IMG/VR virus record: IMGVR_UViG_3300039008_000031
Location: 1-64,000 of that record
DNA from: a virus
DNA length: 64,000 bases
Strand: one strand, 5' to 3'
Under the pieces are notes generated by a model. It was given only the letters and a program-made list of their open reading frames with translations, ran no database searches and was not told where the DNA came from. The translations under genes and the position numbers were made by a program. This document shows positions 2,176 through 63,966 of the stretch, piece by piece; the stretch's first letter is position 1; each line of letters opens with the position of its first letter.

Positions 2176-2187
2176 AGAGCAGGTACC

Positions 2188-3381: not shown

Positions 3382-3398
3382 GGGATTACTCTCTTGGT

Positions 3399-3560: not shown

Positions 3561-3561
3561 T

Positions 3562-32278: not shown

Positions 32279-34030
32279 ATGTCCAATGACATCAAACAGG
32301 TTGTGTCTATGTTGGCCGGAGAGCAGAAGATCACGCTTTTCACCATGACCGGTGAAGTGCTGGATCTGAAGAACGATGGCCCCCATGACACTGCCAAAAT
32401 CTCCGAATTCCTCGCACCCAAGCTGACCGGCACCGGTGCTGTGGAAATCAACCTGCGTGAGTATCTGACGATTGTCGATGCTCTGGGTGGTGAGAACCCT
32501 GAATATGAAGAAGAAGGGGTGATCAAAGTCGTCATGATCGACGGCAAGGAAGTGAAAGGCATCTTCTACCCTGAAAAGGTGAAGGTGACTGTTCAACACA
32601 AAGGGGAAGAAGTTGAAATCCCCAAGGCGGATAAACTCACCAAGCACATGAAACGTGCCAAGGACGAGAACTCCCCTGCTGTGCGTAACTTCCTGCGTCG
32701 TATGGTCAGTGTGGCTAAGGACCGTCGTCACTCGGCTGAAGACCTGATGGACTTCATCGAAAAATCGAACCTGCCTCTGACCAACGATGGCCGGATCATC
32801 GGCTATAAGCGTGTGAATGCACACCCGACGAAACCGGGGATCTTCGTTGACTGCTACTCTGGTTCTGTTGAACAGCGTGTTGGTACTCGTGTGTGGATGG
32901 ATGTGGACGGTGTTGACCCGAACCGCAACCAGTCCTGCTCGCATGGTCTACATGTCGGCAATCTGGGTTACATGGGTGGTTTCCACCGTGGCCAACCGAC
33001 TCTGATCGTTCTGGTTGATCCTGAAGACTTCATCGCTGTGCCTCATCGTGAGACCACCAAATGCCGTGTCTGTGCATACGACATCGTGGGCATCATGACC
33101 GGCACCCAGTCGGACACCATCGACAGTGGCAACCACGTCGAAGGCGATGGCAGCTTTGATGCTCTGATCGCTGGCATCATCGAAGGTCGTTACCAGAAAC
33201 CGTTTGAGGCGGTGAAGGTTGGCAAGAAGTGTATGCTGGAAACCAAGCTTCTGACTGCTGAAGATGCAGTCCGTGAGCTGGACACCGCAGAGCAAGCCTC
33301 TGTGGACACTGTTGCTGCTTCGGGCAAGGCTCTGCAAGAAGACGCCACCAACACCAAGAAAGACGTTGTAGGTGCTACTAAACGGGCTAAGGCTGAACAA
33401 CAGGGTAAGAACATTTGGGACGATGCTCCGGCAGAAGTCATCACTGTGTTCGAAGCACTGCACAAAGGCAAAGAGTCCAAGGCTCAAATTGCACGTGACA
33501 ACAACACCTCGACCCGGACCATGCAGCGTTGGCAGGAGAAGTATGACTTCGACGGCTGGGCCAAGAAGACTGGTGAACGCTTTGACATCTACTACGATGG
33601 CAAGGCCAACATCAATCTGATCAAGGCCCATCGTTCGGTCATGCGTACCGGCCTGAAAGAGGCCAAAGAAGCTGTGGAAGCCGGTGGGCTGCTGTTCGAG
33701 AACATCACCGCACAGGATGTGGATGAAGTGACCCGGATCGTCGGCCAGATCGGTCTTGTGATCGTTCAGCATGGCTCCACCCCGGTACCGGAACAGCCTG
33801 AAACCAAGGAGGAAACCTCTGCTCCGAAGGCTCCGGCCAAGAAGGGTGGTATCCGTGAACAGGGGCAAGACCTGTATGGTGCTTGGCAGAAAGCCGGTGG
33901 TGAAGCTAGTGCAGAAACGTTCCAACATCTTCTGGACTTCAAGAAAGCGAAGAAAAAAGGTTGGGCTTCTCTGGGCTTCAATGCTGTTCAGATCAAGAAG
34001 ATCGAACGTGCAACCAATAAGCTGGGCTAA
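32279..34030 (+). CDS. rIIB: rIIB-like protein with a C-terminal HTH and ribosomal L7/L12-CTD-like extension
   Basis: The core assignment is by position directly after rIIA plus the conserved-looking core GRIIGYKRV...SCSHGLHVGN...IVLVDPEDFIAVPH. The C-terminal segments are described under findings. Confidence 0.5.
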   Translation: MSNDIKQVVSMLAGEQKITLFTMTGEVLDLKNDGPHDTAKISEFLAPKLTGTGAVEINLREYLTIVDALGGENPEYEEEGVIKVVMIDGKEVKGIFYPEKVKVTVQHKGEEVEIPKADKLTKHMKRAKDENSPAVRNFLRRMVSVAKDRRHSAEDLMDFIEKSNLPLTNDGRIIGYKRVNAHPTKPGIFVDCYSGSVEQRVGTRVWMDVDGVDPNRNQSCSHGLHVGNLGYMGGFHRGQPTLIVLVDPEDFIAVPHRETTKCRVCAYDIVGIMTGTQSDTIDSGNHVEGDGSFDALIAGIIEGRYQKPFEAVKVGKKCMLETKLLTAEDAVRELDTAEQASVDTVAASGKALQEDATNTKKDVVGATKRAKAEQQGKNIWDDAPAEVITVFEALHKGKESKAQIARDNNTSTRTMQRWQEKYDFDGWAKKTGERFDIYYDGKANINLIKAHRSVMRTGLKEAKEAVEAGGLLFENITAQDVDEVTRIVGQIGLVIVQHGSTPVPEQPETKEETSAPKAPAKKGGIREQGQDLYGAWQKAGGEASAETFQHLLDFKKAKKKGWASLGFNAVQIKKIERATNKLG

Positions 34031-34090
34031 TCATCCAGCCACTGGATAGTGAGGAACCGACCCCCTTGAAAACCCCTCACTAACTGGGAA

Positions 34091-34153
34091 CCTCCACGAG
34101 TACGGACCCCAAGTCCTGCGTCTTCGGACTGCTCGTGGAGGTTTTTCTTTTTT
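34091..34153 (+). terminator. Rho-independent terminator (compound hairpin)
   Basis: The 10-bp outer stem CCTCCACGAG / CTCGTGGAGG encloses an inner AGTCC...GGACT hairpin and is followed by TTTTTCTTTTTT. Confidence 0.8.
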
Positions 34154-34173
34154 GGTTTTTCAAGGAGATAATC

Positions 34174-34629
34174 ATGACCAACGCAGACGATATTTTGACT
34201 TTCATCGAAGATGATTGGACACCGCCAGATACCGTATCCCGAAACCTAAAGGAGATCCTTTGGTTTGGTATGGATGATGGCCAAGTGTACACCAGTCATA
34301 TCGAAGTCATTGATCCTGATGAATCCAACGAAGAACGTTGGGGGATTCTCAGCTTCGAAGAATTCTACGGTGATCTGAGCTTCTCGATCCAAGAAACCTT
34401 GGAAAAGCACTTCCCTGATTTTGGGTATTTCCGCATGGAAGGTGCGGACATGGCCCATGGTCAGGATAGTTGGACAGGAGAAGGTTGGTCTGAATTCTAC
34501 CCCGGAGAAATCCGCCCTGCCACACTCTCGGAAATCCGAGAATATTTTGGCGAGAAGATCACTCCATTGGTTTTCTGGGATCAGCTGAAAGCTGCTTTCT
34601 GTGCTGCCCGACATATGGAGAACTTCTGA
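34174..34629 (+). CDS. Hypothetical acidic protein (151 aa)
   Basis: Start refined to ATG 34174, 7 nt after AAGGAG (MTNADDILTFIEDDW...). Confidence 0.6.
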   Translation: MTNADDILTFIEDDWTPPDTVSRNLKEILWFGMDDGQVYTSHIEVIDPDESNEERWGILSFEEFYGDLSFSIQETLEKHFPDFGYFRMEGADMAHGQDSWTGEGWSEFYPGEIRPATLSEIREYFGEKITPLVFWDQLKAAFCAARHMENF

Positions 34630-40008: not shown

Positions 40009-41283
40009 ATGCCTATGAACCAAGAACAACAGGCAGCGTTTATTGATCTCATTGGGTTCATCAACGATCCTGACCGGAAATACCATCGAGTATCGGGTGG
40101 AGCAGGCACAGGCAAAACCTACTTCATCTCACAGGTCGTTGATAACCTTCTGAAGCATAAACAGCCTTCCTGTCCCCTGCATTCTGTAGGGATTACTGCC
40201 ACTACAAATAAAGCTGCAGCTGTTTTGGCAGAAGGAATTCCACACCGTCGTACTGAGATCGGAACGATCTATAGTTACATGAATCTTCGTGTGAGTGAGA
40301 ACTTCAATACCGGCGAAGTCAAATGTGTTCCTACCCGGAACTGGACTGTCCATCAGGGTGTTCTGATCATTGTTGACGAAGCGTCCATGATTAACAATGC
40401 CCTGATGAATTACATCGAGAAAGGTACCAGCAATACCTGTAAGGTTCTTTTTGTTGGTGACAAAAACCAGCTGTCTCCTGTGAAAGAAACCCTCTCTCCA
40501 GTCTATGCCAACAGCTACTCCGAAAGTCAGCTCACCAAACCAGTACGAAATGCAGAACAGCCTGCACTGATGGAGCTGTGTGAGCAAGCCAAAGATACGG
40601 TACTGACTGGGAAATTCCATCGAATCAAGGAAGTTCCCGGAGTTATTGATTTCATTGACGGAAACCAGCTGAAAGGTATCCTTGAACGAGAGTACCACCA
40701 AGAGGATGCTTCCCGTCGTGTGATCTGCTACACCAATGCTCGGGTACAGCAATACAACAGTTTCATCCGAGAACTCCGTGGCTATGGGAAATTGTTTGCA
40801 AAAGGTGAAATGCTGACCAACAACTCCTCTGCTGAATTGGTTGGGAAGGAGCGGCTCTACACAGACCAGCTTGTCGAAGTCATGCAAGTAGGAACCCCCT
40901 ACATTGATAGGAAGATTGTTCCCGGACATGACATTGAAATGGTTGATCTGGAAGTACGGGATCCAAAAACCTTCGCCATGTATATGGTCACTGTGTTTGC
41001 TGATCCTGAAGATCGTAACGAAGTCATCAAACACTATGCTAGTTTGAAAAAGTGGGACCGGTACTTCAAGATCAAGAACAACTACCCTGATCTTCGTTCT
41101 GTGGCTTCTTCCACTACCCATAAAGCCCAAGGCTCCACCTACCACTCAGTGATTGTGGATCTGGCTGACATCGGGAAATCCACCAACAAGGAACAGACGG
41201 CACGTCTTCAATACGTGGCTCTGAGCCGTCCAAAGTCCCGGATCTATATCCGAGGTGAACTACCAGAGAGGTATTTCGAATGA
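40009..41283 (+). CDS. SF1 DNA helicase (Dda/RecD-like)
   Basis: The motifs are GGAGTGKT (Walker A), IIVDEASMI, FVGDKNQLSPV, TTHKAQGSTY and YVALSRPKSRIYI. Confidence 0.85.
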   Translation: MPMNQEQQAAFIDLIGFINDPDRKYHRVSGGAGTGKTYFISQVVDNLLKHKQPSCPLHSVGITATTNKAAAVLAEGIPHRRTEIGTIYSYMNLRVSENFNTGEVKCVPTRNWTVHQGVLIIVDEASMINNALMNYIEKGTSNTCKVLFVGDKNQLSPVKETLSPVYANSYSESQLTKPVRNAEQPALMELCEQAKDTVLTGKFHRIKEVPGVIDFIDGNQLKGILEREYHQEDASRRVICYTNARVQQYNSFIRELRGYGKLFAKGEMLTNNSSAELVGKERLYTDQLVEVMQVGTPYIDRKIVPGHDIEMVDLEVRDPKTFAMYMVTVFADPEDRNEVIKHYASLKKWDRYFKIKNNYPDLRSVASSTTHKAQGSTYHSVIVDLADIGKSTNKEQTARLQYVALSRPKSRIYIRGELPERYFE

Positions 41284-43334
41284 ATTATGAGATCTTGGGA
41301 AAAGGTTCCGGGGCAAAGGTAGCCATCCTCTGTCCCAAGATCCAAGTCGGTGAGATTGAAAAACACTACTTCAAACCATACCTCCATTTGATGGGGAGAG
41401 AGGTAATGGTATGTGATTTGTACATCAACCGATCAAAAAAGAAGACCCCAGCTGCAGAAATCAAGGAATACTTGAACGACCTGCTTCCTCATCTAATTGA
41501 TCGTGGCATTGAAATGCTGGTTGTAACTCAGCCTGACTATTTCAAAATCCTGACCAAACAAGCAAAAACAGATGCCACCATTGGTGACATTCTCCCCAGT
41601 ATTGGGGATCACTTTCAAGTCACATACTGCCCTAACTATAGTCGTGTGTTCTACGATCCTGACAAAACCAAGAAAAGAATTGAGCTTGCTCTTTCTACCG
41701 TGGTTCGGTGGGCAAACGGAGACACTAAGAAAGTCGGGAAAGACATTATCCAGTATGCGGACTACCCAACCAAAGAGTATGAAATTGCTGCTTGGTTGGA
41801 TAAGCTGCTGGAGATGGATTGTGACTTGACCTGTGACATTGAAGGTTTCGACCTAAAACACCACTCTGCAGGTATTGGTACCATCACCTTCTGTTGGAGC
41901 AAACATGAAGGTATTGCGTTCCCTGTGGACTTTGATGAGAACCTACCCTGTAAAGGGAAAACAGTTCGAAACGAAAAAGTCAGGCTGTTGTTGAAAGAGT
42001 TCTTCCTGAAATTCAAACGGAAGATGATCTACCACAACATCTGCTATGATGCTTATGTGCTGATCTACCAACTCTTTATGGACCACATCTTGGACCAAGA
42101 AGGTCTTCTGTTTGGTTTGGAAGTCATGTTGCGAAACTGGGACTGTACCCAGCTGATCACCTATCTGGCAACAAACTCCTGTGCAGGAAACGAACTGGGT
42201 CTGAAGATACAAGCCCAAGAGTTTGCAGGGAATTATGCTGTCGAGGACATCCACGACATCACCCTAATTCCGTTACCAAAGCTTCTGGAGTACAACCTTG
42301 TAGATGGTCTTTCTACTTGGTTTGTAAGAGAGAAGCATCACCCCACTATGGTTGCAGACCAACAGGAAGATATTTACGTCAACCTGTTTAAGAAAGCAGT
42401 GGTAGATATTATTCAGATGCAGCTTACGGGTTTGCCTCTGAACATGAAGAAAGTCATCGCACTTGATGACCAACTTCAACGAGAAAGCCGGGCAGTCTTG
42501 AAAAAGATGACAGAGACCCGGATTGTCCGTGGGTTCTTGGGTGTTCTGAGGGATGAATATGTCGCCAAAAAGAATGCCGAGTACAAGAAAAAGAGAATTA
42601 CTGTTGAGGACATTCCTGACGGAAAAGTAGAGTTCAACCCGAATTCTGCTCCTCAGCTTCAGAGGCTCCTGTATGACAAGGAGTTCTTGGGCCTCCCAGT
42701 TCTCGATTACACGGATAGTAAACTGCCTGCTACCGGGGCAGAAACCCTTGAGAAACTGCAAAATCAGGGAATCAAGGAAGAGGTGAAAGAGTTTCTCGAT
42801 CTTCTGATTGAGTACAAGGCATCTGCCATTATCATCTCTACGTTCCTCCCAGCCTTCCTGAAGGCTTATCCGGGGAACGACGGCTGGCACTACCTGTTTG
42901 GCAACTTCCGTCTAGGAGGGACGCTCTCAGGCCGTCTGTCGTCAAACAGTCCTAACCTACAGAACATCCCGTCTAGTGCAGGTGCTCCGTTGAAAGCACG
43001 TCTTGCCAAACTCATCAAGGAATGCTTTGAAGCCCCTCCCGGATGGTTGTTTGTTGGTTTGGATTTCGACAGTCTGGAAGACAAAATCTCTGCTGTTACG
43101 ACTCGTGATCCTGAAAAGATCAAAGTGTACAGCGATGGGTATGATGGTCACAGTATTCGTGCTTTGGCTTATTTCCCAGAGTCTATGCCAGACATTGAAC
43201 TCTGTCCTGAAGAAAGCCAAGCTTACAAAGGGATAGTAGGCGGCCAAGAGATCTATTTCCACAGTGATGAGGTGGTAGAGTATCTTGGTAAGACCATGAC
43301 CGGGGCTGAGTTGTTTCAGCTCCTAAACCAATGA
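41280..43334 (+). CDS. DNA polymerase (family A), N-terminal fragment: 3'-5' exonuclease + thumb/palm through motif A
   Basis: Exo motifs are CDIEGFDL and YHNICYDAYVL. Polymerase motifs are LSGRLSSNSPNLQNIP and motif A FVGLDFDSLEDK. The ORF ends at TGA 43332-43334, before motif B. Confidence 0.85.
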   Translation: MNYEILGKGSGAKVAILCPKIQVGEIEKHYFKPYLHLMGREVMVCDLYINRSKKKTPAAEIKEYLNDLLPHLIDRGIEMLVVTQPDYFKILTKQAKTDATIGDILPSIGDHFQVTYCPNYSRVFYDPDKTKKRIELALSTVVRWANGDTKKVGKDIIQYADYPTKEYEIAAWLDKLLEMDCDLTCDIEGFDLKHHSAGIGTITFCWSKHEGIAFPVDFDENLPCKGKTVRNEKVRLLLKEFFLKFKRKMIYHNICYDAYVLIYQLFMDHILDQEGLLFGLEVMLRNWDCTQLITYLATNSCAGNELGLKIQAQEFAGNYAVEDIHDITLIPLPKLLEYNLVDGLSTWFVREKHHPTMVADQQEDIYVNLFKKAVVDIIQMQLTGLPLNMKKVIALDDQLQRESRAVLKKMTETRIVRGFLGVLRDEYVAKKNAEYKKKRITVEDIPDGKVEFNPNSAPQLQRLLYDKEFLGLPVLDYTDSKLPATGAETLEKLQNQGIKEEVKEFLDLLIEYKASAIIISTFLPAFLKAYPGNDGWHYLFGNFRLGGTLSGRLSSNSPNLQNIPSSAGAPLKARLAKLIKECFEAPPGWLFVGLDFDSLEDKISAVTTRDPEKIKVYSDGYDGHSIRALAYFPESMPDIELCPEESQAYKGIVGGQEIYFHSDEVVEYLGKTMTGAELFQLLNQ

Positions 43335-43344
43335 GGAAATTTTC

Positions 43345-44085
43345 ATGACCTTGAAAACTTTCAATTCTCGTCCTGTTACGATCAATGCGATCCAATGGAC
43401 TGGGGAAAATGCGGAAAACATTTATGACATCTTCCGTGCAATGGGTATTGAAGACGTGATGCACATCAGCTTGGGTGAGTTCCAAGATCGTGTGGATTGT
43501 GCTGGAAATGCTATTCCCTGCCAATCGGCAACCGGGGAAGTATATGCCCAAGAGGGTATGTACATCATCTTCAACGGTGTAGATGACATCTATCCTTGCC
43601 CTGAAGAGACTTTCCTGAGCAAGTACACGGAACAGACCCCTTCGATGGGTCTGGACCTAAAAACGATGCCTGTGGCACCTCTCTCGTATTATGGCACCAA
43701 ACGTGTCCATGCTTGGCCTCACCAAAAAGGCGAAGAAGAAGGGTACGCTGTGGAATACGAGGACGGCTACATTAGCTGGTCCCCGAAAGATGTCTTTGAG
43801 GCAACATACCAACCCACCACAGCCATGAGTTTTGGCCATGCCATTGTGGCAATGAAAACTGGTTATCGTGTTGCTCGGGCTGGTTGGAACGGCAAAGGCA
43901 TGTTCCTGTTCAAAGTAGCAGGCAGCCAGTTTGAAGTGAACCGGGAACCGCTGAAATCCATTCTGGGTGAAGGTACCGTGGTGAACTACCTGACGCATTA
44001 CGATATGCGGACGGCAGATGGTTCTATCGTTCCGTGGCTCTGCTCTCAGGCAGACATGGACGCAGATGATTGGTTGATTGTCTGA
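43345..44085 (+). CDS. Three-domain protein ending in a DUF2829 (Tad2-like) domain, inserted between the two polymerase ORFs
   Basis: The C-terminus is MSFGHAIVAMKTGYRVARAGWNGKGMFLFKV...GSIVPWLCSQADMDADDWLIV, which has the DUF2829-type GWNGKG ... PW..SQ.D...DW pattern. The N-terminal segments (AIQWTGEN...YPCPEETFLSKY; GYAVEYEDGYISWSPKDVFEATY) resemble small phage beta-barrel domains. Confidence 0.6.
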   Translation: MTLKTFNSRPVTINAIQWTGENAENIYDIFRAMGIEDVMHISLGEFQDRVDCAGNAIPCQSATGEVYAQEGMYIIFNGVDDIYPCPEETFLSKYTEQTPSMGLDLKTMPVAPLSYYGTKRVHAWPHQKGEEEGYAVEYEDGYISWSPKDVFEATYQPTTAMSFGHAIVAMKTGYRVARAGWNGKGMFLFKVAGSQFEVNREPLKSILGEGTVVNYLTHYDMRTADGSIVPWLCSQADMDADDWLIV

Positions 44086-44843
44086 TGCTAGTCATTTCTG
44101 AACCAATGACAGAAGTCTCCGAGGTTACGGCCTCGGAGCACAATGTCAAACGGGTGAACTCCATCAAGAACCGGTACAAACAGCAGCGTCAGGATAGCAA
44201 AGCTCCCACGTTTGCTCTCACGTACCAAGGGACTTTTGCTACCCTGATGAACAACTGTGGCTTCTCTAAGGAACTGGCTCAGGCCATTGAGAACAGCTAC
44301 AAGGGCCTCTACAAAGTCTCCATTGAATGGGTGAACCAACGCCTAGGGAAGGCTACAGAAGATGGTTACATCACTGTAGCTTTTGGTCTTCGGGTTCGTA
44401 CTCCTCTGCTCAAGCAGGTGATTTTGGGAACCAAAGCAACACCAAAAGAAGCAGCAGCTGAAGGACGTACAGCAGGCAATGCAATGGGACAATCCTATTG
44501 TATGCTGAACAACCGTGCTGCCTCTGAATTCATGGAACGTGTTCGAAAAGAGAAACATCGTTTGGATATTCGACCCGGAGCGCATATCCATGATGCTCAA
44601 TACTACCTGATTCGGGATGACATGGAGACTCTTCTCTATGTGAACAAACATTTGCCAGAAGCTGTTCGTTGGCAAGATGATCCTGAGATTGAAAACGAAC
44701 ACATCAAAATGTCCGGTCAATTGGAGATCTATTATCCAAACTGGAACCATGGATTGGATCTTCCAAACGACATCCCCGAAGCGGAGGTCATTGAGATGAT
44801 CAAAGACCACAACAAGAAACTACGCGAGAAGGGCGTGTTATGA
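44085..44843 (+). CDS. DNA polymerase (family A), C-terminal fragment: fingers motif B + palm motif C
   Basis: ATG 44085 overlaps the upstream stop (TGATG). Motif B is RQDSKAPTFALTYQG and motif C is GAHIHDAQYY. Confidence 0.8.
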   Translation: MLVISEPMTEVSEVTASEHNVKRVNSIKNRYKQQRQDSKAPTFALTYQGTFATLMNNCGFSKELAQAIENSYKGLYKVSIEWVNQRLGKATEDGYITVAFGLRVRTPLLKQVILGTKATPKEAAAEGRTAGNAMGQSYCMLNNRAASEFMERVRKEKHRLDIRPGAHIHDAQYYLIRDDMETLLYVNKHLPEAVRWQDDPEIENEHIKMSGQLEIYYPNWNHGLDLPNDIPEAEVIEMIKDHNKKLREKGVL

Positions 44844-51896: not shown

Positions 51897-54800
51897 TTAC
51901 TTGTTGGCCCAATCTGCAGCGTTAACCCACGGGTTTAGTTCAGGTGCTCCGAACAACATCTCATAACCCATGGAATAACCCAGCTTGTCATCAGCAATGA
52001 CCGAGAAGATGTTGTCCTGAATTGGGCTATCTTCTGTCAGACCACCTGTCACAAATGCCCGTACCGGGTTCTCCCGAAGATGTTGCATAGCAATCTTAGC
52101 GATACGCAGTTTGAATGCGAAGAACCAAGTACCTCCAACACCTTCCAGATAGGAACGTGTACGACCCGGCAGAACAGAGAAATTAACAAACTCTTCGTTC
52201 ATTTTAGCAATAGCCGTATCGTGATCAAAGCCTTTAGCAATCAAGTGATCATAGTAGATCGCTTTTGCAAGGAAGTCTCCGTACTGAACAGCACGGTTTA
52301 GTCCTTTGTAAAGAGCAGTGGACTTCCCTACCAAACCATACTGAACAACAGTATTTACCTTAGCAGGCAAAATACGTTCAGCAGTCTGTTCAACCCAATC
52401 TCCCAAATTTCCAGATGTCAGTTCGACATCCAAATCTGTCAGACCTTCAGACAAGTTCTTGTATGCACCTGCCTCAATCAGAGGAGCAATGGACATACGT
52501 GCATTCAGGTCATCCAGAGACTGGATACGTTGTTCTAATACCTTGGCACGATTAGAACCCACACCTGCAAGACGTACACGAGCCTCCAGTTCAATCTTCT
52601 CTTTGACGTTCTGGTTATACTTCTCAACCTCTGCCAGCTTCTCACGGAAACCTTTGTACACCTGTTTGGTGGGTACCCCACGAGTGGTCAGCTGGATCAC
52701 GTTTGCCTTCAGGTTCATCATAGGAACGACCATAGACCGAACCACGATAATATCCTTAGCAGACGAGATGAGCTGCTGTGCTCCTGTCTCAAAGCTCCCA
52801 ACTACCTTCAGGGCCTTATCTCCAAAGAACATCGTTGTAACGCCTGTGACCGTGTTCTGGACGCTCTTAGGCAGTCGTGTCTTGCCAGACCACATGTCCA
52901 CCACAGAAGCTTCACGATAACCCAGAGCAAGGTTGATATGGTCTTTCCGTACCCAGAATTGTTCACCAAATTGGGAAGCAATGTAGTTCTTGGTTTGGAT
53001 AGGGATTACCCGGTAAGTCTCCTTATAGATCTCATCTTTCAGATCAGGATCAGCAATGTTGATAAACTGATTATCCGTACCCGGTTCCCGGTTATCGTAG
53101 ATAGATTTCAGCTCATCAACCACAGCCTTATTGTATTCCTTTGCTGCAGTTTCTTCGACCTGACGGCCAGCCCACGAACCAAGCATAAGAGCAAGGTTCT
53201 CATCAGGCTCCATGATACGGTCCAGAATATCCGGGTTAATAGCACGTTCAAAAGCTTCCACTTCCCCGTTCTCATCAAAGATCGGAGTCAGAGTTTCTTT
53301 GGCTTTTACCTCATCCGCTTCCACATCTTTAAGGATTTGATCCTTGGCTTCGCCAGTGATGATCCCAGAAGTGGTACCGTTAACCGTAAGGCCGGTATCC
53401 ACATCAACCCCCCGGTAGGTCAGCTGAGCCTGTTGGATAATCCCCTGAGAATAGTTACCTTGAGTTTTGGCAGTATTCACAAAGTAGGACTTGCTAAAGA
53501 TCGAAGCATCTTCAGCAGTTGCCGGAGCCAGTTCGGTATATCCTTCGGCTTTGAGCTGGTTGGCGTAATCGGTCGGTTTGATTTCAATACGAACATCCTT
53601 CTTACCATGGTTCGGGACATACCCTTTGTACCCGTTAAGACGGGCTTTCTCAGAGATGTCCTTTGCATCTTCCTGAGCATTCAGGTGCTGCATATATGCC
53701 ACAAGATTGGCAACTGCTTTAGGTTCGTTCTGGTACATCTCCACAGTCTGTTCCCGCATATCCGGGTCCATGTCTCGCAGAGCATACAGAGAAACCAACT
53801 GATCAATGGTCCCGATCATGTGGGGTTTAGGATCACCATCCACCATCTGATCAATAGCATACGCATTCCGCAGCAAGTTATGGCCTGCACCCTGACCATT
53901 CATGTAGGCTGCCAGTTGTTCTGCTTTATCCAGAACATCCTGAGCCACGTAAGGCAGATACTCATCACGAATATCCTGTTCCAGACGTGCGATTTCCTTG
54001 TTGCGAATACCTTTCTCGGAAACAAAACGGAAAACCTTGTTCAGAGAACCAAGAGAAGTAAGTGCCTGAATATCTGTTTTTGCCAGAGTATTGAACATCG
54101 ACTTCCACTGGGACGCATCCGGGTGAGTGGTAAACCCATTCTGCAGAATAACCGGAAGATCTTCCCGGAATGCCTGACGAGCAGCAGATACAGCATGGTT
54201 GGTTTTATCGAGAAGAGCCACAAGGTTCTTATTCGAAGCATCCGTACCCACAACCTCAGATACCAGTTCCCGTACCGGAGTAAGAATTCCTTCCAAAGGA
54301 ATTCCCGAGTGGGTCAGAGCTTTAGCCCCTTCAGCAGTAATTGCAGCACGGTCACTGTCCAACAGGTTAGCAGCCAAAGAAACAGTATTCCCCAAACCTT
54401 TAGTAAGTTTGTGGTGCTCGCTTTCCTGAAGCTGTTGGTTCTGATCAGACACGAAACCAGCCAGAGAAGAGAAGGCATCTTTCATTGTGGTATCTGCAAT
54501 ATCCAACCCACGACCAATAGTCTGAAGACCGGTGAACTCTTTCTGAAGGTCCATCCGAACAATAGAGTAGTCCAGAGCATCCAGAACCTCTTTGGAAGAC
54601 TTACCTGCAGTGTCGATAGATCCTGTTACTTTACGCATCAGGAAGGACACAGCCTGAGTCAGCCTACCGTTGAGATCTTGGGTGTGTGCCTGTTCAGGCA
54701 TGGTTTCCAATTGATCCAAAGCATTACGGAAGGTTTTGGAAGTTTGGGAGAGCGCAAGAAGCACAGCAACTGCATCAGAAATTCCTTCTTTGTTTTTGGT

Positions 54801-57800
54801 TTTACCCATCAGATCCATGACTACAGAGAACTTCTCCTGAGCCTGACGACCCTTGCCAAAGCTTTCAGGGGTGAGGTTCTCTACCACATATTCATGCGTC
54901 TTCTGGAGAACCAGAAGAGAAGCACTATCCAGTTTCATTTCCGTAGCCATCATCATGTGAGTAGCCAAGAAAATCTGTTGCTGCTCCGTAGTCATCGGGA
55001 AACCATTACGGTTCAGGTCGTCCATAGTTTTAAAAGCAGCATTGCTATAAGCAGGCAGCTTTTCACGCTGTACGAACGCATCAGTTTCATGGGATACTGC
55101 CAGAAGGTCACGAACCATCTGAACCCAATGATTGGTGTTGTTCGATGCCGGGGGGGTGATTTCTCCATCTGAATTGTCACCACCATTGTTGTTGCCGTTG
55201 TCCGAGGGGACTTCGTTGAGCACTTTGGTGTTGAAGACAAGATTGTCAAAGATGTTCTGAGGAACACCCCCCATAACCCGACGCATCAAAGCCACCACAG
55301 ACTTAACAATACCCACAAGAGTACGTGTTTTCGTTTCTTTCAGTGTCTTGATAAGATCTTTGTTGGTCAGGCCCCAAGCCATAAACTCATTCAGAGCAGC
55401 AGCTTTTGCAAATGTTGTTTCCTGTGTCTGATGCTGCAGGATCGCTGCACGAGCAGAATTGGCCCCTGCATTATCTACAGCCAATTCCATAAACTCATCC
55501 ATCAGCTTCTCAATACGAGAAACGGCATCATTCTTCTTGCCGCTATAATGAGCAAGCACAGTTTGGAAAGTGGCTGCATGGATCAGTTCATGAACCAAAG
55601 TCTCTGGATCCTTGGAAGTTGAGAAGATCACATTGTTGGCCACATCATAGTTGCCCTTACCTTCAAGGAATTGACCATCATCCGGGAAATTCTCCTGACG
55701 GTATTCATTGATCTGATCTACATCACCAATAATGATCTGAAGACCTGTAGGCAGCTTATCCTGAATAGCTTTGATCGACTGCTTCAGAGGACCAGACGCA
55801 TCTTTCAGAAGAGCAGACAAGGTAGCTTCCCCAGTGGAGATAACCAGTTCAGAAGGTTGTTCTTCCGTTTTGGTTTCTTCCACTTGGTTCAGTTCCTGAT
55901 GGATCAGCCGGTTAATCTCAGAACGAGTCAGTTTACCCCCTTCACGGGTAAAGCCCTCAGACGAACCTCCCATCTGATCAACAGTCAGTCCAATACGTTT
56001 GAAGACCGCTTTACGTGCTTTGTTCTGGCGGTGACGTTCTTCCAGATCAGCCATAAGGGCCTTTGCATCCTGGGCAGTTACAGAGCTGTTCTTGGACTTG
56101 CCTTGAACGTTGGTAAATGCCTGTGCCACCAGAGGATCATTACCTACATGGTTCAGGAAAGACTGGAAGTTTGTAACTGCCGAACCAAGAACATCACGAT
56201 CCCAAGAGGCCAGAACCTGTTGGTTTACATGTTGGGCGTATTCCTTAACTTTGTTAACCGGAACGTCGATACCATCAAAGATAGGCAGCGTGTCACCCAT
56301 GGCACCTTGAGAACCGTAAACAAGGTTCATCATCATGGCATCCCCTGTACCAATAACAGAGAACGGAATTGCCTTCACACCTGCTTCACCCGGAGCAGGA
56401 AGTGAAGACTTCTGACGAAGCTTCTCATTCATGTTGGAGGACAGAGTGTACGGAGACTGTTGGTTATCAAAACCAGCAATAGCAAGAGTCTGTTCATCCG
56501 ATGCAAAAACCGGAGCCAGAACCGAAACCTCTTTGACCACAGAGTCGTAATCACGCTTGCTCAAATTGGTAACGATTGCTTTGCCTTTCTTGTTCCGACG
56601 AACCTTCCCTTCTTTAGCACGTTGTTCTACCAGCTCTTCCAGCTTGGTTTGGAACACGAGACTCATGTACTCAGTCTGAACGTTAGAGGTGAAAACCAAG
56701 ACATCATTCAGTTGAGCGATCTTATCACCCAGAACTTCTTTGGCTGCATCAGACAAAACCTGACCCAGAGTCTGAGAGATATTCTTACGGAATTCTTCCA
56801 CAATGTGGGGTTGGAAGGTGAAACGACCATCTTCCAGATCAGCAGGAAGCTGTCCTCCGAACAGGATTTCAATGTCCTGTTCAAAATGAGGATAACCAAA
56901 AAACTCAGCCCGATCAGCACCTTCTGGCAAAGATGCAATTTTGGAATAAAATTCTTTGATCATATCGTCTGCAACCCCTTCACCAACACCTTTGACCCCA
57001 GAACCGTAGTTCACTTTGGTCATCGGGTTTTTAGCAGTGTTACGGGTCATTTCGACTTTACCATCTTCATTCATGGTAAAGTTACCAAACACAGCAGCAA
57101 ACCGTGCAGCGGCATACATACGCTGTTTATCCGCCTCTTTCCCTTCACGGGCCAGTTTAGCCATAAGACGTTCACCAGCACGAGAAACAGTCTCATACAG
57201 GTCAGTATTACCAGAAGAGAAGAACTCGTTCACAGAACCAAAAGAGGAACCAAGGAAGAAACCGATACGGTTGAAGTTATCAAAATCAGCCTGAGTGATT
57301 TCACCTTGTCCGAAGTTTACCATCATGTTGGCTGCACCATTGGTCAGACCATCCAGTTCAAAAGACAGGGAAGTACGGAATTCTTCCTTACCGTTCTCTT
57401 TGGCAAACTCCATCTCAGCTACAGCATGGATTGCAGCAAGCTGCTGCATCTCAATCTGGCCAGTCTCTTCAACGAGAGCTGCACCATCCATTTCTCCACC
57501 CCGGAGCCACTCTTTCACCATATCCACAGCACCTCGGTACTTGCCAAAGAACTGGTCTTGAACCGAAGCAAGAATATCGCTGTGATTTTTCTTCTCAACT
57601 TTGAACATGTCAGAAGCTTGAGCAACACCCAGCCAGAAACCATCCAAATCATTCATAGATACGGTGGACCAAGTGGGAGTAACCAGAGCACGAAGAACTT
57701 TGTTGGACTGAGGGTTCACACCTTTGAACTGGTGACGACCAACACGAGTGATCCCTACCGGGTAGTAAACCGGAGTATCTTCTTCAATCAGGTTAATAAC

Positions 57801-60800
57801 ATCCTGAGCATCCCGAATGTCTTTCTGGATCGAACGGTTCTTACCTTCCACAGAGATCAACAGGGATTGGTTGGTACCCTCCGAGACCTCTTGGTAGCCT
57901 AGCATATCTTCCAGAGCCTCACCACCCATTGCTTCGACCAGAGCGATACGCCCATGGTCAGCATAGTGAGGAGTGTCCTGCATCTTCTTAAGAGCAGTAC
58001 GTTCCAGTTTGGACAGAGCCACATCAGAGCGGTTCTGTGTATGGGATACGGTATGGATTTTCTCTCCAACCGAAGGTTTCTCACCCCGATCACCGGTCAG
58101 AAGTTCACGAGCAGTGGTAATCGTATCTTTGGTTGAGCTGTCCTTAATCTGTTGCTGGATCTTCTCCAGACCTTTCACGTTGATCGTGTTAGTGGTTGTA
58201 GGGTTGCCTTCAGCATCTTTGGTTTTCAGAGTAACCACTTCAATCAGATCAGTATTGTCAGCAATGGTAGATACCATCTCTTTGACAACACCTTCAATGA
58301 TACCTCGGGATTGTTCCAGAGGAGCATCCACATTCACACGAGCACCAATGAAGTCCATGGCAGAGCGGGCAATTTGCTCCATAGCCTGTGCAGGAGGAAC
58401 ACCATACAAGATGTCCTCAAGGTTCTCTTGGTTCACGTCGTTCTCAGACAGACCCAGAGTCTCAAGGGTCTCGTCAATACGAGAAGGGTCGGTAGCTGTG
58501 ACAGTGGTAAGCCAATCTACAACTGCCAGACCAACCATCTCGACCATATCCTGATCATATTGACCGTCTTCATTCACCATAGCGGTGTTACGGAATTTCA
58601 TCAGAGCAGTGAGGTTGTCACCATCTGCCAGAGCCTCTGTCACAGTCCGCTTGTCCTTGGAACTGATAGTTACCTGAGTCAGACGACGGTTCATACGTGT
58701 GATAACCGGCTTCAACAGTTTCTGTGCAAAATTCGTGTAGGCTTGGGAAACGTTCCCGTTCTCAGCAACCACATCCATAAACTGTGACATATTTGTCACA
58801 TCTTGGGTTGTCAGGATGTATGTTTCCGAGAAGGCTTCCGTTGGGCCAGAGACTCCCTGATCTGTTTCAATTCTTTCCTGCGTCTCTGCCTCTTTAGATC
58901 CTGCCACGCTATCATCCCGATCCCCAGTGCCATCACCAGTATCGTCATCAGCCCCGTGAGTATCAGAATCTTTAGCATCACTTGCCTCCTCTTGCTCGGC
59001 CACTTCTGTCGCTGGCGCGTCAGAAGCATCCTCGACAATCGTTGTGTCGTCGGTGGTCAGGGTAACAATCTCAGGGATTGTCATACCCTCAAACAGCTCA
59101 GGGAAGCTTTCCTGAACCAACGAAAGAACTTCAGTGGTCATCCGTGCATCATTAGCCACAGTCTCTGCAAAGGCCACAGATTTCGGGCTACCAGAGTGAT
59201 AGGCCATCGGAGCTGCATTACCAGTTGCACCGGGCTGGATGAACTTCACACCACCTGCAAGGCTTACGAAAGGAATGGACGGACCTTTGCCATTACGGTT
59301 CTGTTCCTTGGATGCCTTCAGAGCACCTACTTTGTTATTCATATGGATAGCAAAGTTGACGAACTGTTTAGCCAAAGACTGAGCAGGGATTGCCACACCA
59401 TCTGCACCAACAAACGTTCCATCAGGGGATTGTGCAGCAGTGAAGATGTCGGCAGCAAAGTCATTCACCGAACGAAGGTTTTTGCCTACGGCATCTCTGA
59501 AACCAGAGATAGCAATGGAGCGGCTGGTTTCATCAATGGTCAGAGCAGCAGGCAATTTCGAAGGGTTAGCCTGATAAGCGGGCTTCTTCGACAAAGCAAT
59601 GCGTTCACGACTGGAAATTTCAACCTGTTCTTCGACGTGGGTACCAATAGCCAGAGCAATCTTCTGTGCCTGACCAAGGATGCGAACATCTTCAGCAGAC
59701 AGATCAGAAGGAGCCTGTTCAAGGATCTTCCCTACAAATTCAGGGTTAACGTTTGTGGGATTGGTTTTGGCAACCTGTACAGCAGCAGATACCGAGTTCT
59801 CATTGACCTCAGTTTCAACAGTCTGGAGTTCGTTCAGGTCAACCTTACGAGCAGCCTTCATGACCTTCTGAACATCAGGGGACTGAACCAAGGAAGCAAT
59901 CTCACGCTGAACCTGTTTAGGCATTGTAGGAGCTGCATTGGACAGAGTTTGAAACTGGTTTTCTGCATACAGAGTTTCAGCCGGAGTCAGCTTATTAACC
60001 CGGACCTTCCCTTCAGACAGGGTACGAGCAACACCGATAGCATTGGAGATCGGAGAAGCAGTCTCACGAGAGAATTCCCCGAAGACTTTAGGAACCGAAA
60101 TACCATCAGCCTGAGAAGCCATTTGTTGGAAGGAAGCAGTGTTAGCTTCTTCACTTTCCAATGCTTTCTTGGTTGTGGCAGCCAGACGAGAAGCCTGAAT
60201 GACCAGTCCTTTGCGTTTCTCTTTACCTTGGGTAGCAAGATCAGACACAGCATTGGTGATAGGGGCAGCAGCTTCAACAACCGGCTGGGCCTTGTCAGCA
60301 ACGATTTCAGCAGCCTGACGGGTACGTTGAACAACTGGGGTAACAACAGGAGCAGCTTTCTCTACAACCGCTTCTACGGCTTTAGCACCGGTGCTGATTG
60401 CTTGTCCTGTAGCTTTTGCAGTTGTGGCAGCCCCTTCACGAACAAGAGGACTTTTTGCAGCTTCTACAGCTTGTTTGGTTACAGCACCTGCAACAGAGGC
60501 AGCAGCTTTAGGGGAAGTAGTAACCCCTGCCATACCAACACCACCGATAGCACCTGTGGCCAACTCCTCACCCACACCTTCATGGATGAGACGTTCATCG
60601 TCTACGTTATCACGAATAGCAATATTTTGGGTAAGGCCACTGGTACCTCCTTGCAGAGCTTCTTCCACACCTTGGGAGATAACAGAACCCGGACCTGCAC
60701 CAAGAGGGGAACGTTCAAACTTACCTCCTACCAGACCCAGAGAAGATGAAATGGGAAGTTGACGAATAAACGCCATCTCTGCAGTTGCAGAGGCAAAACT

Positions 60801-61790: not shown

Positions 61791-61824
61791 ATTAAACCAT
61801 CCTAACGGTTTATCTGGCCCTTGA

Positions 61825-63966
61825 TTAGTTATCTTGAGCGATAAAAGGTGCCAGAAGTATTGCCTTCTCCCTGTTGGACAGGGAAGCGTCTGCATTGATG
61901 TGTCGCACAATTTGACGTTCGAGAGCAACCCTTTCTGGAGATCCTTGGGGAGTATCTTGCAAACGAGACAAATACCCAGTGCTTTGTAGATACTGAGTAG
62001 CCTCCTGACGAACAACTTCACGAAGTTCAGGAGTGGTTGCTCCTTCAACTTGAAGAGCCTTTGCCAGTCGATTTGCACTCGTAAGCACTTCACCTTTTTT
62101 CACAACATCAGCAATGAAGTCTGCACCAGAACGTCGATCAGTGATCGGGTTATCTTGGGCAAAAGACAAAATCTGAGACTGAACACGAGCAATCTCTTGG
62201 TTCAGTTCAGGAGAGTTATTCCCCCGTGCCTGACGTGTACGAAGCTGGTTAAGCTGGGTTTCCAGGTTTTCCAGTCTCTTGCGCTGTCGAGTACCGTAAT
62301 CACGACGTTCTCGATGACGACCAAGAGCCTGTTGGGACATGTTCGCACGAATATACTCTGCAGCACGTTCAGAAGACAGAACATTGGCCCAAGTGTTCAC
62401 CCCAGAAGGATCAGACTGGTAAGTCTCCCGGAGAGCAACTGCAGCAACTTCAGGGGTAACACCCGTAGCCTGAGCCAGAGAGTTAATCTGGTTTCGGACA
62501 TCATTCTTATCAATTGCCTCGGAACTAATACCCAGCTGATTAAGCAGAGTCCCTGCAGGATTCTCAACAAAAGCAGGTACTTCATTCAACAGACGTTCCT
62601 GAAGAGTAGCCTTGATAGCAGTAGAGGTGTCTTGATTGTAGCCAGACACAGCTCCAGCAATTGCCGGGTCTTCTGCAATAGAAGGAGTAGTTGCCTGAAG
62701 CACAGCCTCTGCAGCTTTATTCGAACGATCCAGAGCAGCAAGTTGCTGGTTGGGGGTAAGGTTCGAAACAGCCGAAAGAACGTCCTGACCAACAGCCTGT
62801 GTGCTGAGATTATCAGGATCCCGCCCAGCAGAAAGAATAGCAGCAGCTACTTGGTTAGAGGCATCTTGTTTTGCAAGATCATCAATTCGAGCCTGACCAA
62901 CATTCTGAGCTTTAATCAGAGGAGCCAGTTGAGCCTCAATCTGAGCAGGAGTGAACTGACCACTATCCACAAGTTGTTGACGTACAGCAGCAATTTGATC
63001 AGTAGCAGAACCGCCTCCATAACCACGGTAAGCACCGGTGTTTCCTTTGAATGTCTGTCCAGAAGCAGAACCAAAGAAATGATCACCATCAATCTTACGG
63101 AAGCTATCATTGCTCCAAGAAGGAACACCAGACACGGCGGGAATGACTGCGTAGTAGTTCAATGCACCACCAGTACGGTCTTGGTAATCCCCACGAAGAA
63201 TTGCATCAGCAGCGTCCATAGCTTGTTTGCTTGGTTGGAAGGACATATTTTGCCCTTGTTCACCACCTGCATAACCAGTGACAGAGTTCCAAGCAGAAAA
63301 CTGGCCCGGCTGCATGATTACACCTTCAATAGAGCCATCACCAAACTTACCAGAAGCAGCTCGGTTACGGATCACAGATCCGACATCAAGCATACCTTCG
63401 TAACCTTGGTTTCCTGCTTCAGCCTGAAGAGTACGAGCAAGCATAAGACGAGTATCCGCACCCGGATCACCTCGACCGTACTGACGACCAGTAGCAGCAG
63501 CTGTAGAAGCAATTCCTGCAACTCCCCGAAGAGCATCACGAGAAGCAATGCTATCGGCATACTTTGCAGCATTCCGGCCTTCTACAGCTTGGGCAATGGC
63601 AGTACGTGCTCGTTGTCCTGCAGTGCTGGCCCGAGTACCCTCAATATTGGCACGAGACTGACCATACCCCAGAACAGTGTCCCGGAGATTGAATACACGA
63701 TCTCGCATACCCTGAGAGATATTACGGCCTTCCAAGGCACCTGAATTAAGAAAGGAAGCAAGTTTGTCTTCACTGTCGATAGAGGCAATCTCTGTCAGCA
63801 GTTCGTTATCTGCCTTCTCTTCCTGACCAGTACGATACTGGGCCAGAACATTGTTGGCATTTTCAAAAGCACTGTTGAAGGCTTGGTTTGCATTAGCCAG
63901 AATTGCAGAAGTCCCCCGAAGATCGGGGGCAGCAATCTGACGCCATTGTAGACGATTATCAGCCAT
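61825..63966 (-). CDS. Virion protein with a SleB/Hydrolase_2-type cell-wall hydrolase domain
   Basis: The central segment MLARTLQAEAGNQGYEGMLDVGSVIRNRAASGKF...GVIMQPGQFSAWN...ALNYYA fits the SleB pattern. It is flanked by Ala/Gln-rich regions and lies directly upstream of the vRNAP gene. Confidence 0.65.
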   Translation of the reverse strand: MADNRLQWRQIAAPDLRGTSAILANANQAFNSAFENANNVLAQYRTGQEEKADNELLTEIASIDSEDKLASFLNSGALEGRNISQGMRDRVFNLRDTVLGYGQSRANIEGTRASTAGQRARTAIAQAVEGRNAAKYADSIASRDALRGVAGIASTAAATGRQYGRGDPGADTRLMLARTLQAEAGNQGYEGMLDVGSVIRNRAASGKFGDGSIEGVIMQPGQFSAWNSVTGYAGGEQGQNMSFQPSKQAMDAADAILRGDYQDRTGGALNYYAVIPAVSGVPSWSNDSFRKIDGDHFFGSASGQTFKGNTGAYRGYGGGSATDQIAAVRQQLVDSGQFTPAQIEAQLAPLIKAQNVGQARIDDLAKQDASNQVAAAILSAGRDPDNLSTQAVGQDVLSAVSNLTPNQQLAALDRSNKAAEAVLQATTPSIAEDPAIAGAVSGYNQDTSTAIKATLQERLLNEVPAFVENPAGTLLNQLGISSEAIDKNDVRNQINSLAQATGVTPEVAAVALRETYQSDPSGVNTWANVLSSERAAEYIRANMSQQALGRHRERRDYGTRQRKRLENLETQLNQLRTRQARGNNSPELNQEIARVQSQILSFAQDNPITDRRSGADFIADVVKKGEVLTSANRLAKALQVEGATTPELREVVRQEATQYLQSTGYLSRLQDTPQGSPERVALERQIVRHINADASLSNREKAILLAPFIAQDN

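Follow-up and report, generated by a model that had tools for sequence, protein, structure and literature searches.

The window, the whole stretch of 64,000 nucleotides that was analysed, belongs to an uncultured N4-like phage and encodes its family A DNA polymerase as two chains, and we infer that these meet non-covalently in a working enzyme. We consider it likely that the two-chain polymerase arose when an HNH homing-endonuclease cassette fractured the gene, left tails at the new termini and opened a junction that was afterwards reused for cargo, such that the gap between the halves is probably the scar of a mobile endonuclease. A sequence-only reading of the locus had offered either a two-chain enzyme or a polymerase gene used as a landing site for an accessory gene, and both appear to be true at once.

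All three ORFs of the locus lie on the plus strand exactly where that reading had placed them (41280-43334, 43345-44085 and 44085-44843), and its assignment of motif A to one polymerase ORF and of motifs B and C to another proved right. The first, or N fragment (41280-43334; 684 aa), matched PF00476 (Pfam positions 27-197, E 1e-24) and phrog_17 (E 3e-113) and carries the N-terminal region, the 3'-5' exonuclease, the thumb, palm motif A and the fingers up to helix N. It aligned at 65% identity, up to aa 640, with the contiguous polymerase of Dinoroseobacter phage DS-1410Ws-06; PNLQNIP spans aa 558-564, with motif A, FVGLDFDSLEDK, following at aa 591-602 (43050-43085). The C fragment (44085-44843; 252 aa) has a polymerase core at 44145-44843 composed of the O-helix with motif B, the remaining fingers, palm motif C and the C-terminus, in which motif B, RQDSKAPTFALTYQG, spans aa 35-49 of the fragment (44187-44231) and motif C, HIHDAQYY, aa 167-174 (44583-44606). 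This core matched phrog_2573 (E 9e-41) and is 65-70% identical to cultured Rhodovirinae polymerases, and the C fragment takes up PF00476 positions 190-335, such that the Pfam matches of the two halves are complementary and abut. The catalytic Asp residues and the O-helix Lys and Tyr of motifs A, B and C are all present, spread over the two chains, and the columns of these motifs are invariant among split relatives (alignment A5).

Between the halves, the TGA stop of the N fragment (43332-43334) and the 10-nt spacer behind it (43335-43344) occupy 43332-43344, with GAGGAA at 43333-43338 forming a Shine-Dalgarno-like site for the insert ORF. That ORF, a 246-aa cargo gene (43345-44085), ends in a TGATG overlap at 44083-44087 where its stop meets the start of the C fragment, an arrangement of translational coupling. 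Both the spacer and the overlap had been described beforehand and were seen as described. The two polymerase ORFs share one frame but are separated by more than 10 stop codons, which agrees with the earlier statement that there is no in-frame intein continuity.

Alignment placed the break, whose position relative to the O-helix the sequence-only reading had left to be defined, in the fingers loop that joins helix N to the O-helix; this corresponds to the Taq 'GVPREAVDPL' loop, immediately ahead of R659 in the O-helix. Because the N fragment contributes motif A and the C fragment motifs B and C, the chains presumably assemble non-covalently into a normal Pol I fold. An artificial single-chain fusion, N(360-684)+C, takes the Klentaq/Bst fold in a predicted model (pTM 0.67; Foldseek against Klentaq/Bst, E 1e-16, TM ~0.6), and Pfu polymerase remains functional when divided near the tip of the fingers (PMC3061061). 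PMC10201439 gives N4-like polymerases (cluster 17) as single chains of 800-900 aa. As had been supposed for N4 itself, N4 and the cultured N4-like phages, all cultured Rhodovirinae included, have one contiguous polymerase gene of ~870 aa; the ORFs of 684 and 252 aa found here depart from the single polypeptide (~800-900 aa) of N4-like family A polymerases.

The split recurred well beyond this one record. A Logan assembly of SRR21418661 (73,016-bp contig, L192) was 100% identical over 3,564 nt, with the same three gene calls, and divergent loci share the break, which excludes the assembly error that had been raised as a concern; the exact C fragment is also present on a 73,255-bp JGI/IMG contig. 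About 21 distinct metagenomic loci have the break in common, and 103 of the 120 best homologue clusters of the C fragment are stand-alone proteins of ~250 aa with the same head, many of them on 70-74 kb contigs. What had been taken for a rarity is common in uncultured N4-like phages yet missing from deposited phage genomes, and the tail of the N fragment occurred in 0 of 50,697 GenBank phage records. In a rough neighbour-joining tree of 230 aa of the core, which has no support values, split forms occupied at least 5 separate places beside contiguous forms, and these contiguous neighbours carried no trace of an insertion.

The cut itself is not clean. Although its two chains stood, the earlier description of the break had overlooked a conserved tail and head, as well as HNH genes in relatives. 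Two stretches are non-polymerase sequence without counterpart in contiguous relatives: a 44-aa tail that closes the N fragment (LCPEESQAYKGIVGGQEIYFHSDEVVEYLGKTMTGAELFQLLNQ; 43200-43331) and a 20-aa head that opens the C fragment (MLVISEPMTEVSEVTASEHN; 44085-44144). Homology of the C fragment to contiguous relatives begins at aa 20-21. Every split relative keeps the tail, in which P, F-H, E, Y, G and G are invariant, and the head follows the pattern ML.I..P....V..V..SEH(N/D)V.R(V/I)N in the 103 of 120 best clusters, with residues M326, H344 and V346 invariant (both in alignment A5). Between split relatives, dN/dS was 0.28-0.37 for tail and head and 0.06-0.10 for the core; both halves are under strong purifying selection, and tail and head are also constrained. 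The tail/head module was modelled at low confidence in the fused AlphaFold model (pLDDT 32-65), with the head as coil. Tail and head together are probably an added interaction module.

Gap content varied widely among relatives, from 10-64 nt without a gene up to ~3 kb, and the genes found there comprise small ORFs, Tad2-like (the commonest), gp49-like, Acb2/Tad1-hairpin, Nmad5, ribonucleotide reductase and HNH genes. Because the same break occurs with gaps of 10-64 nt or with quite different cargo, the 246-aa gene is not the cause of the split, contrary to the claim that it had divided the polymerase; the break is independent of cargo and older than the insert, which is one of several exchangeable occupants. 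That the insert is not a homing endonuclease held up: it is PGDYG-like plus Tad2-like, and domain and protein-family profile searches found no nuclease domain in it.

No endonuclease gene is present in the window, so that an HNH origin is argued from relatives. NUMOD4+HNH_3 genes lie within the gap in L154 and L185, and three other loci (L187, L188 and L189) have a second, neighbouring break 22 codons upstream, where an HNH gene overlaps both halves. These second-break HNH genes are homologous to those in the gap (33-44% identity, E 1e-20 to 1e-31). The tails at the second break were the top non-self matches of our tail among 38,161 ORFs in both profile directions, at E 2e-4 to 0.4, the individual values (7e-4 to 0.4) being weak, and the matches between the two sites always fell at the extreme C-terminus; homology between sites is claimed for the tails, not the heads.

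Most split loci hold no endonuclease, which would also be expected if tail and head were an ordinary in-frame insertion in the fingers, later split in place and passed on vertically with repeated loss or re-fusion. The enzyme would still be two chains, and the contiguous loci L135 and L141, kin to the second split subfamily, do carry at this position an insertion that is homologous but shorter ('...DIRLSGDKQAFKATVGDKTEYFLEGDHNIPTTAVAITGKEFDVASINSI'). We nonetheless regard this history as unlikely: a homologous tail occurs at the other break, where in every case a homologous HNH gene overlaps the two halves, and the split forms in the rough tree sit next to insertion-free contiguous ones in at least 5 places, so that vertical descent would need many precise deletions. 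A single contiguous product would instead result if tail and head were the halves of a very small split intein, with trans-splicing ligating the polymerase in the manner of the 'fractured genes' known from marine phage metagenomes. The layout of host N-part plus extension, free-standing gene, and extension plus host C-part fits those genes (PMC2677866). The extensions are also placed exactly as an in-frame insert would be relative to contiguous homologues, HNH genes occur in the gap of relatives, and in the window Cys stands second in the tail (LCPEE...) and His-Asn closes the head. The smallest HINT domains, however, are ~125-130 aa and natural split inteins ~100 + 35 aa, against only 64 aa for tail and head combined. 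The tail Cys column varies (C/L/T/A), the residue at +1 after His-Asn is an invariant Val and not Cys, Ser or Thr, the Asn is often Asp, and the His is Phe in the second subfamily. A Hint/intein Pfam family was absent even at E 10, and neither HINT halves nor their catalytic residues are to be found in 44 + 20 aa with a variable first residue and Val at +1. We think trans-splicing quite improbable here.

Joining at the RNA level, by a group I or II intron or by translational bypassing as in T4 gene 60, seems more improbable again. Group I introns are frequent in phage polymerase genes (PMC10580990), and short-gap relatives have a hairpin directly after the stop codon that loosely resembles the gene 60 take-off site. 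An Rfam search of 42900-44500, however, gave nothing reaching E 1 (best E 1.8), bearing out the statement that there is no group I intron; an ORF fills the window's gap apart from its 10-nt spacer, and gaps in relatives may be just 10-64 nt. Tail and head are conserved as protein under purifying selection, the head begins with an invariant Met, and Shine-Dalgarno-like sites precede several heads in relatives; matching take-off and landing codons were not found in L164 when read from its sequence. The window comes from a metagenome assembly, yet that the locus should be an artefact of assembly or sequencing, or a pseudogene decaying in a defective phage, is scarcely credible given the identical second assembly, the same architecture in dozens of divergent contigs from unrelated samples, the strong selection on both halves and the tight coupling of the three genes.

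Fracture by a mobile endonuclease is the history that we favour. In an ancestor of the N4-like lineage, the polymerase gene would have been broken at the surface loop joining helix N to the O-helix, most likely by a free-standing HNH homing-endonuclease cassette, which would have left a tail of ~44 aa upstream and a head of ~20 aa with its own start codon downstream. The two chains would then be translated separately from one operon, with the Shine-Dalgarno-like site serving the start of the insert ORF and the TGATG stop-start overlap that of the C fragment, and the halves would dock non-covalently with neither RNA nor protein splicing. The new junction, expressed along with the replication genes, may have become a tolerant site where the endonuclease was lost or swapped for other cargo, here the PGDYG-like plus Tad2-like protein. 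More tentatively, it is possible that tail end, HNH gene and head start form a self-contained mobile element that breaks essential genes, brings its own pair of interacting peptides and has used at least 2 N4-like polymerase sites; loss of the nuclease would leave a stable two-chain enzyme, and its junction would be a hot spot reused by genes of anti-defence and of nucleotide metabolism. If true, such an element would act like an intein, with non-covalent docking replacing splicing.

A comparable split is that of NrdA-a/NrdA-b by mobE in phage Aeh1, reportedly described by Friedrich in 2007. As there, two adjacent same-strand genes here make up one enzyme, with non-homologous tails unique to the new termini, no splicing and an active site drawn from two chains. 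The Aeh1 gene, too, encodes an essential replication-related enzyme, but a ribonucleotide reductase and not a polymerase, and it was split by a free-standing mobile endonuclease gene whose insertion produced tails that the split enzyme needs in order to be active (Crona et al. 2011, PMC3045599). Aeh1 is one phage with one site, whereas the tails here are a conserved family in many lineages and at two sites, and the endonuclease is HNH and mostly lost or replaced by cargo.

Conserved portable tails and anti-defence cargo are, to our knowledge, unreported for the split gp43 (43A/43B) of some T4-like phages. As summarised in PMC2677866 from Petrov and Karam, it is likewise a replicative polymerase in two genes up to 2-3 kb apart; it belongs to family B and has a different break point and endonuclease family. 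The fractured genes of Dassa et al. 2009 (PMC2677866) have the same three-part layout, come mainly from marine phage metagenomes and encode DNA synthesis enzymes, and their hairpins persist after endonuclease loss. Their extensions work as genuine intein halves, ligating the protein; because those here are too short and lack catalytic residues, the enzyme most likely stays two chains. Family A polymerases are also split in the T7-like cyanophage S-SBP1, by an exo/pol fission that sets whole domains apart (PMC10201439), and in the OM43 phages MEP401/402, inside the pol domain with a small unknown ORF between the halves (PMC10580990). Both belong to polymerase subfamilies and have break points different from ours, and neither paper is known to report conserved tails, variable cargo or a link to endonucleases.

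Turning to the cargo of this phage, Pfam, structure-database and homologue matches divide it into a PGDYG-like module (aa 1-100), a linker module (aa 115-158) and a Tad2-like/DUF2829 domain (aa 160-246; 43822-44082). The last scored 81.4 bits against PF11195 (cut-off 25) and matched solved Tad2 and AcrIIA7 chains at E 2e-15 to 4e-10, including 9eib and 8v3e at E 2e-15 across the full domain. DUF2829/Tad2 proteins bind 1''-3' gcADPR (bioRxiv 10.1101/2023.05.01.538930), and from its sequence the cargo is predicted to be a putative anti-Thoeris sponge for gcADPR-type signals and is likely an anti-immunity gene. Its last 87 aa align end to end with the Tad2 (SPO1 gp34.65)/DUF2829 sponges (PDB 8sme, 8v3e, 9eib, 8wjd; E ~1e-15), but characterised Tad2 proteins are ~90 aa, whereas this one reaches 246 aa with the PGDYG-like domain and linker in front. 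Such a position, within a polymerase gene, is unusual: the DUF2829 gene of N4 lies ~9 kb downstream of the polymerase. The cargo is 50% identical to a 165-aa Tad2-like gene at the same position in locus L084. Its N-domain, modelled at pLDDT 90-98, matches 'PGDYG protein' models in BFVD (E 1.6e-4) and is also fused to Tad2 in P0244.

The family A DNA polymerase of the window is encoded by two ORFs: an N fragment of 684 aa (41280-43334) that ends at TGA and carries motif A at aa 591-602, and a C fragment of 252 aa (44085-44843) that carries motif B at aa 35-49 and motif C at aa 167-174. Their Pfam DNA_pol_A matches, spanning model positions 27-197 and 190-335, respectively, abut one another. Between the fragments sits an ORF of 246 aa (43345-44085) whose start is preceded by 10 bases with GAGGAA and whose stop overlaps the start of the C fragment as TGATG. 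An earlier, sequence-only reading had proposed the two-ORF polymerase, the allocation of the motifs to the two ORFs, the 10-nt spacer and the overlap, and all of these were recovered, with the ORFs at exactly the same coordinates. The neighbourhood comprises, in order, ribonucleotide reductase, PIF1-type helicase, polymerase, gp42-like, primase and Sak4-like genes, and an ORF of 3,398 aa on the minus strand (51897-62093) has the size of a virion RNA polymerase. A virion-packaged RNA polymerase is a marker of N4-like phages and, judged by the surrounding genes, the phage is N4-like and of the Rhodovirinae type.

Evaluating the position of the break against the contiguous 871-aa polymerase of Dinoroseobacter phage DS-1410Ws-06 revealed that homology of the N fragment stops at '...YFPESMPDIE' (aa 640) and that of the C fragment resumes at 'VKRVNSIK' (aa 21), with the contiguous protein reading 'MPDIDPSSVDSINSI' at the break point. 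Comparing a split-family profile with PDB sequences placed the break in the Taq 'GVPREAVDPL' loop, between helix N and the O-helix and ~10 residues before the latter, which begins in Taq at R659, such that the break assigned by the sequence-only reading to the fingers lies just ahead of the O-helix. The O-helix closes on the incoming nucleotide. When the fragments were fused and modelled, the construct took the usual fold of a Pol I polymerase domain (pTM 0.67; Foldseek TM ~0.6 to Klentaq and Bst), with low confidence (pLDDT 32-65) for the terminal extensions in this AlphaFold model, which used an unpaired alignment.

Those extensions, a 44-aa tail on the N fragment (nt 43200-43331) and a 20-aa head on the C fragment (nt 44085-44144), were not found in contiguous relatives. 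They were present and alignable in all split relatives, with invariant residues P, F-H, E, Y, G and G in the tail and M, H, V, R and N in the head. Among relatives with unsaturated synonymous divergence, dN/dS was 0.28-0.37 for tail and head versus 0.06-0.10 for the core, so the extensions are translated and constrained, though less so than the catalytic core. None of 50,697 GenBank phage records covered the tail, and neither megablast nor tail searches found a deposited GenBank phage with this split. Two contiguous polymerases (L135 and L141; L-numbers denote comparison loci) contain this insertion in frame and in a shorter form, and a second subfamily (L137, L162-L165, L163) has tails and heads recognisably related to those of the window. 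In three members of that subfamily (L137 4936-5000, L163 4953-5000, L164 4973-5000), the gap of 24-64 nt contains a GC-rich hairpin and, after it, a T run, a terminator-like arrangement placed within an essential split gene; hairpins left by endonuclease cassettes have been described in fractured genes (Dassa et al., PMC2677866).

The break could be apparent rather than real, or be repaired at the level of RNA, protein or translation, and the data speak against each of these readings. An assembly artefact is made very unlikely by a second assembly of the locus (L192, a 73,016-bp contig in the Logan assembly of SRR21418661) that is 100% identical to the window across all 3,564 nt and carries the same insert gene, and by the many relatives with the same break; the exact C fragment is also on record on a 73,255-bp JGI contig. 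Metagenome scanning and contig look-ups gave ~21 distinct loci with this break, and stand-alone proteins of ~250 aa with the same N-terminal extension made up 103 of the 120 best C-fragment clusters, many on contigs of 66-74 kb, with the counts of split versus contiguous forms depending on how the search ranked its matches. An intron is rejected, in agreement with the sequence-only reading, which saw no room for a group I intron core: an Rfam scan of 42900-44500 at E 10 returned noise only (best E 1.8), and in relatives the halves are separated by merely 10 (L109), 24 (L164), 47 (L163), 52 (L119) or 64 nt (L137), leaving no space for any intron.

An in-frame intein fares no better, as the two fragment ORFs share one frame but frame-0 translation meets >10 stops between them, confirming the lack of in-frame continuity claimed from the sequence. 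A split intein was considered seriously for the 'C...HN' seen across the extensions and was rejected because tail and head combined are only 64 aa, the first tail residue varies (C, L, T or A), the residue after the head 'HN' is an invariant Val, and no Hint or intein Pfam family was found in the extensions at E 10. Translational bypass was likewise rejected, since matching take-off and landing codons were not found in L164 and the Met starts are conserved.

Comparing the gap between the halves across loci revealed that its content varies widely. The gap was empty in five loci and elsewhere held an ORF of 48-55 aa (L083, L122, L154), a Tad2-like protein of 165-168 aa (L084, L122, L126, L130, L154), an N4 gp49-family protein (PF13876; L111), Nmad5 (L134), an HTH protein (L146) or a NUMOD4+HNH_3 endonuclease (L154, L185). 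Ribonucleotide reductases, as small plus large chains (L140 297-3022; L143/L144, in L143 at 1295-4017) or as a class II enzyme (L184 1254-3248), produced gaps of 2-3 kb. One arrangement, found identically in L114 (4190-5008) and L115, combined a crAss001_48-like protein, a 157-aa Acb2/Tad1-hairpin protein and a 54-aa ORF, and the hairpin gene points to a second kind of immune-signal sponge in the same slot. The N-terminal part of that 157-aa protein is weakly similar to the N-domain of the window's insert (BLASTP E 2e-4). Three IMG/VR loci found via the Tad2-like gene likewise adjoin a polymerase head. The earlier proposal that the polymerase was split by the 246-aa gene is therefore not sustained, as relatives share the break with an empty gap or other cargo; on this comparison of loci, the gene is a passenger and not the cause of the break.

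The cargo protein of the window consists of three modules. Its aa 160-246 align end-to-end with Tad2 structures (9eib, 8v3e, 8wjd, 8sme) and AcrIIA7 at E 2e-15 to 4e-10, and aa 115-246 share 50% identity with the L084 gap gene. A word-index homology search with the N-terminal domain gave no match, and an exhaustive HMMER search placed aa 1-100 in a family of ~90-aa stand-alone phage domains; the model of this domain (pLDDT 90-98) matched 'PGDYG protein' models in BFVD at E 1.6e-4. Searching PDB folds with the model of the insert yielded no significant match, nor did PADLOC match the cargo proteins. In the protein P0244, the same N-domain is fused to Tad2. The insert is thus a PGDYG-like plus Tad2-like protein and, as first read, not a homing endonuclease. 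Since DUF2829/Tad2 proteins sequester 1''-3' gcADPR and block Thoeris (bioRxiv 10.1101/2023.05.01.538930), we infer from homology a sponge activity for the window's cargo. The slot is probably co-transcribed with the replication genes, which may suit proteins needed when immune signalling starts. P0243 (364 aa), a protein from the representative search, combines the same N-domain with a Tad2-like domain into which an HNH_3 + AP2 endonuclease segment is inserted, suggesting that the sponge gene is itself targeted by mobile endonucleases. Escherichia phage N4 (NC_008720) carries a DUF2829 gene (33997-34482) beside gp49, ~9 kb downstream of its polymerase; together with the gp49-family cargo of L111, this suggests the same accessory genes in different slots of different N4-like lineages.

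A second break lies 22 codons upstream, right after motif A and between '...KLKVY' and 'DGYDGHS', and was present in 10 of the 120 best clusters and in L132. In the loci examined (L187 2054-5364; L188 2096-5352; L189 2-1560), an HNH gene of 175-182 aa sits between the halves; it shares ~26 nt with the 3' end of the upstream half and ~40 nt with the 5' end of the downstream half, and its product is 33-44% identical (E 1e-20 to 1e-31) to the gap HNH of L154 and L185. The tails at this site, for example 'MGHITYELEIDGVIHHIRDDSTIEYDGKTYTGEQFYAMWNSKV', share with the tail of the window the pattern Y..I.G...H..D(D/E)..(I/V).Y.GK..TG..(F/L)(Y/F). Searching 38,161 ORFs with the window-type tail profile placed all four second-site tails among the five best outside matches (individually weak, E 7e-4 to 0.2), and the reverse profile returned window-type tails as 8 of its first 9 (individually weak, E 2e-4 to 0.45); in both directions matches were always at the extreme C-terminus. 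The tails appear to travel with an endonuclease gene. Neighbour joining on the C-terminal core gave a rough tree, without support values, that set split forms in at least five places among contiguous ones and the window polymerase as sister to cultured contiguous Rhodovirinae.

Most likely, then, an HNH homing-endonuclease cassette broke the polymerase gene in an exposed fingers loop and would have contributed the stop, the start and both extension peptides. We infer that the two chains would be made separately and assemble non-covalently, across a native interface expected to be large because each chain supplies part of the palm sheet, motif A coming from one and motif C from the other. Tail and head would probably form an added docking module, a role already shown in Aeh1, where NrdA-a and NrdA-b gained their tails with mobE and depend on them for activity (PMC3045599). 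Polymerases tolerate breaks of this kind, since a Pfu enzyme split by accident close to the tip of the fingers stays active (PMC3061061). With the junction in place, loss of the endonuclease gene or its replacement by other genes would do no harm.

Free-standing endonucleases are established agents of gene fragmentation in Aeh1 nrdA/mobE and T4-like gp43, and fractured genes with split inteins are known too (PMC2677866). Within family A, T7-like cyanophages show an exo/pol fission that was presented as the first in the family (PMC10201439), and in OM43 phages the polymerase is split, with an uncharacterised small ORF inside the pol domain (PMC10580990). The former paper, a 2023 survey, gives each N4-like polymerase as one chain of 800-900 aa (PMC10201439), and the split goes unmentioned in papers on uncultured N4-like viruses and on new Rhodovirinae. 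Our literature search found no description of a fingers break in N4-like polymerases, of conserved tails common to two sites or of a polymerase junction as an anti-defence gene slot. A Pol I-type replicative enzyme that would work with its chain broken ~10 residues before the O-helix represents a natural experiment on fingers dynamics, as well as a ready-made split site with putative natural docking peptides for split-polymerase engineering. If the tails do travel with the endonuclease, the single case of Aeh1 NrdA would broaden into a family of elements able to offset, with no splicing, the harm that they cause. The repeated presence of sponge genes (Tad2-like, Acb2/Tad1-like) also suggests the junction as a new place to seek anti-defence genes, where their position suggests co-expression with replication genes. 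N4-like viruses are found and classified with the polymerase as a hallmark gene, and pipelines expecting one 870-aa polymerase will truncate, split or misplace such genomes in trees.

The only window-type split loci that still have an HNH gene in the gap, L154 (~5115-5150, contig of L014) and L185 (~998-1035), share an identical 1-nt insertion in their motif B codons ('CCNACCTTTCGCNCTTAC' versus the in-frame 'CCAACCTTYGCTCTNAC') that breaks the C fragment at 'KxPTF|ALTYQG'. The insertion could be a sequencing error, a mutation that shields the gene from the nuclease encoded by the element, or a +1 frameshift site (UUU C); a near-identical in-frame protein of the L185 lineage is on record (P0083, 79 members). 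Other breaks of N4-like polymerases were also seen, with L191 (2183-5505) encoding 616 aa, an 83-aa ORF and 334 aa, broken before motif A and bearing a helical, unrelated head, and L190 (2353-5613) having a 520 + 193 + 370 aa arrangement. C-terminal polymerase pieces of ~370 aa form a large family on contigs of 73-77 kb.
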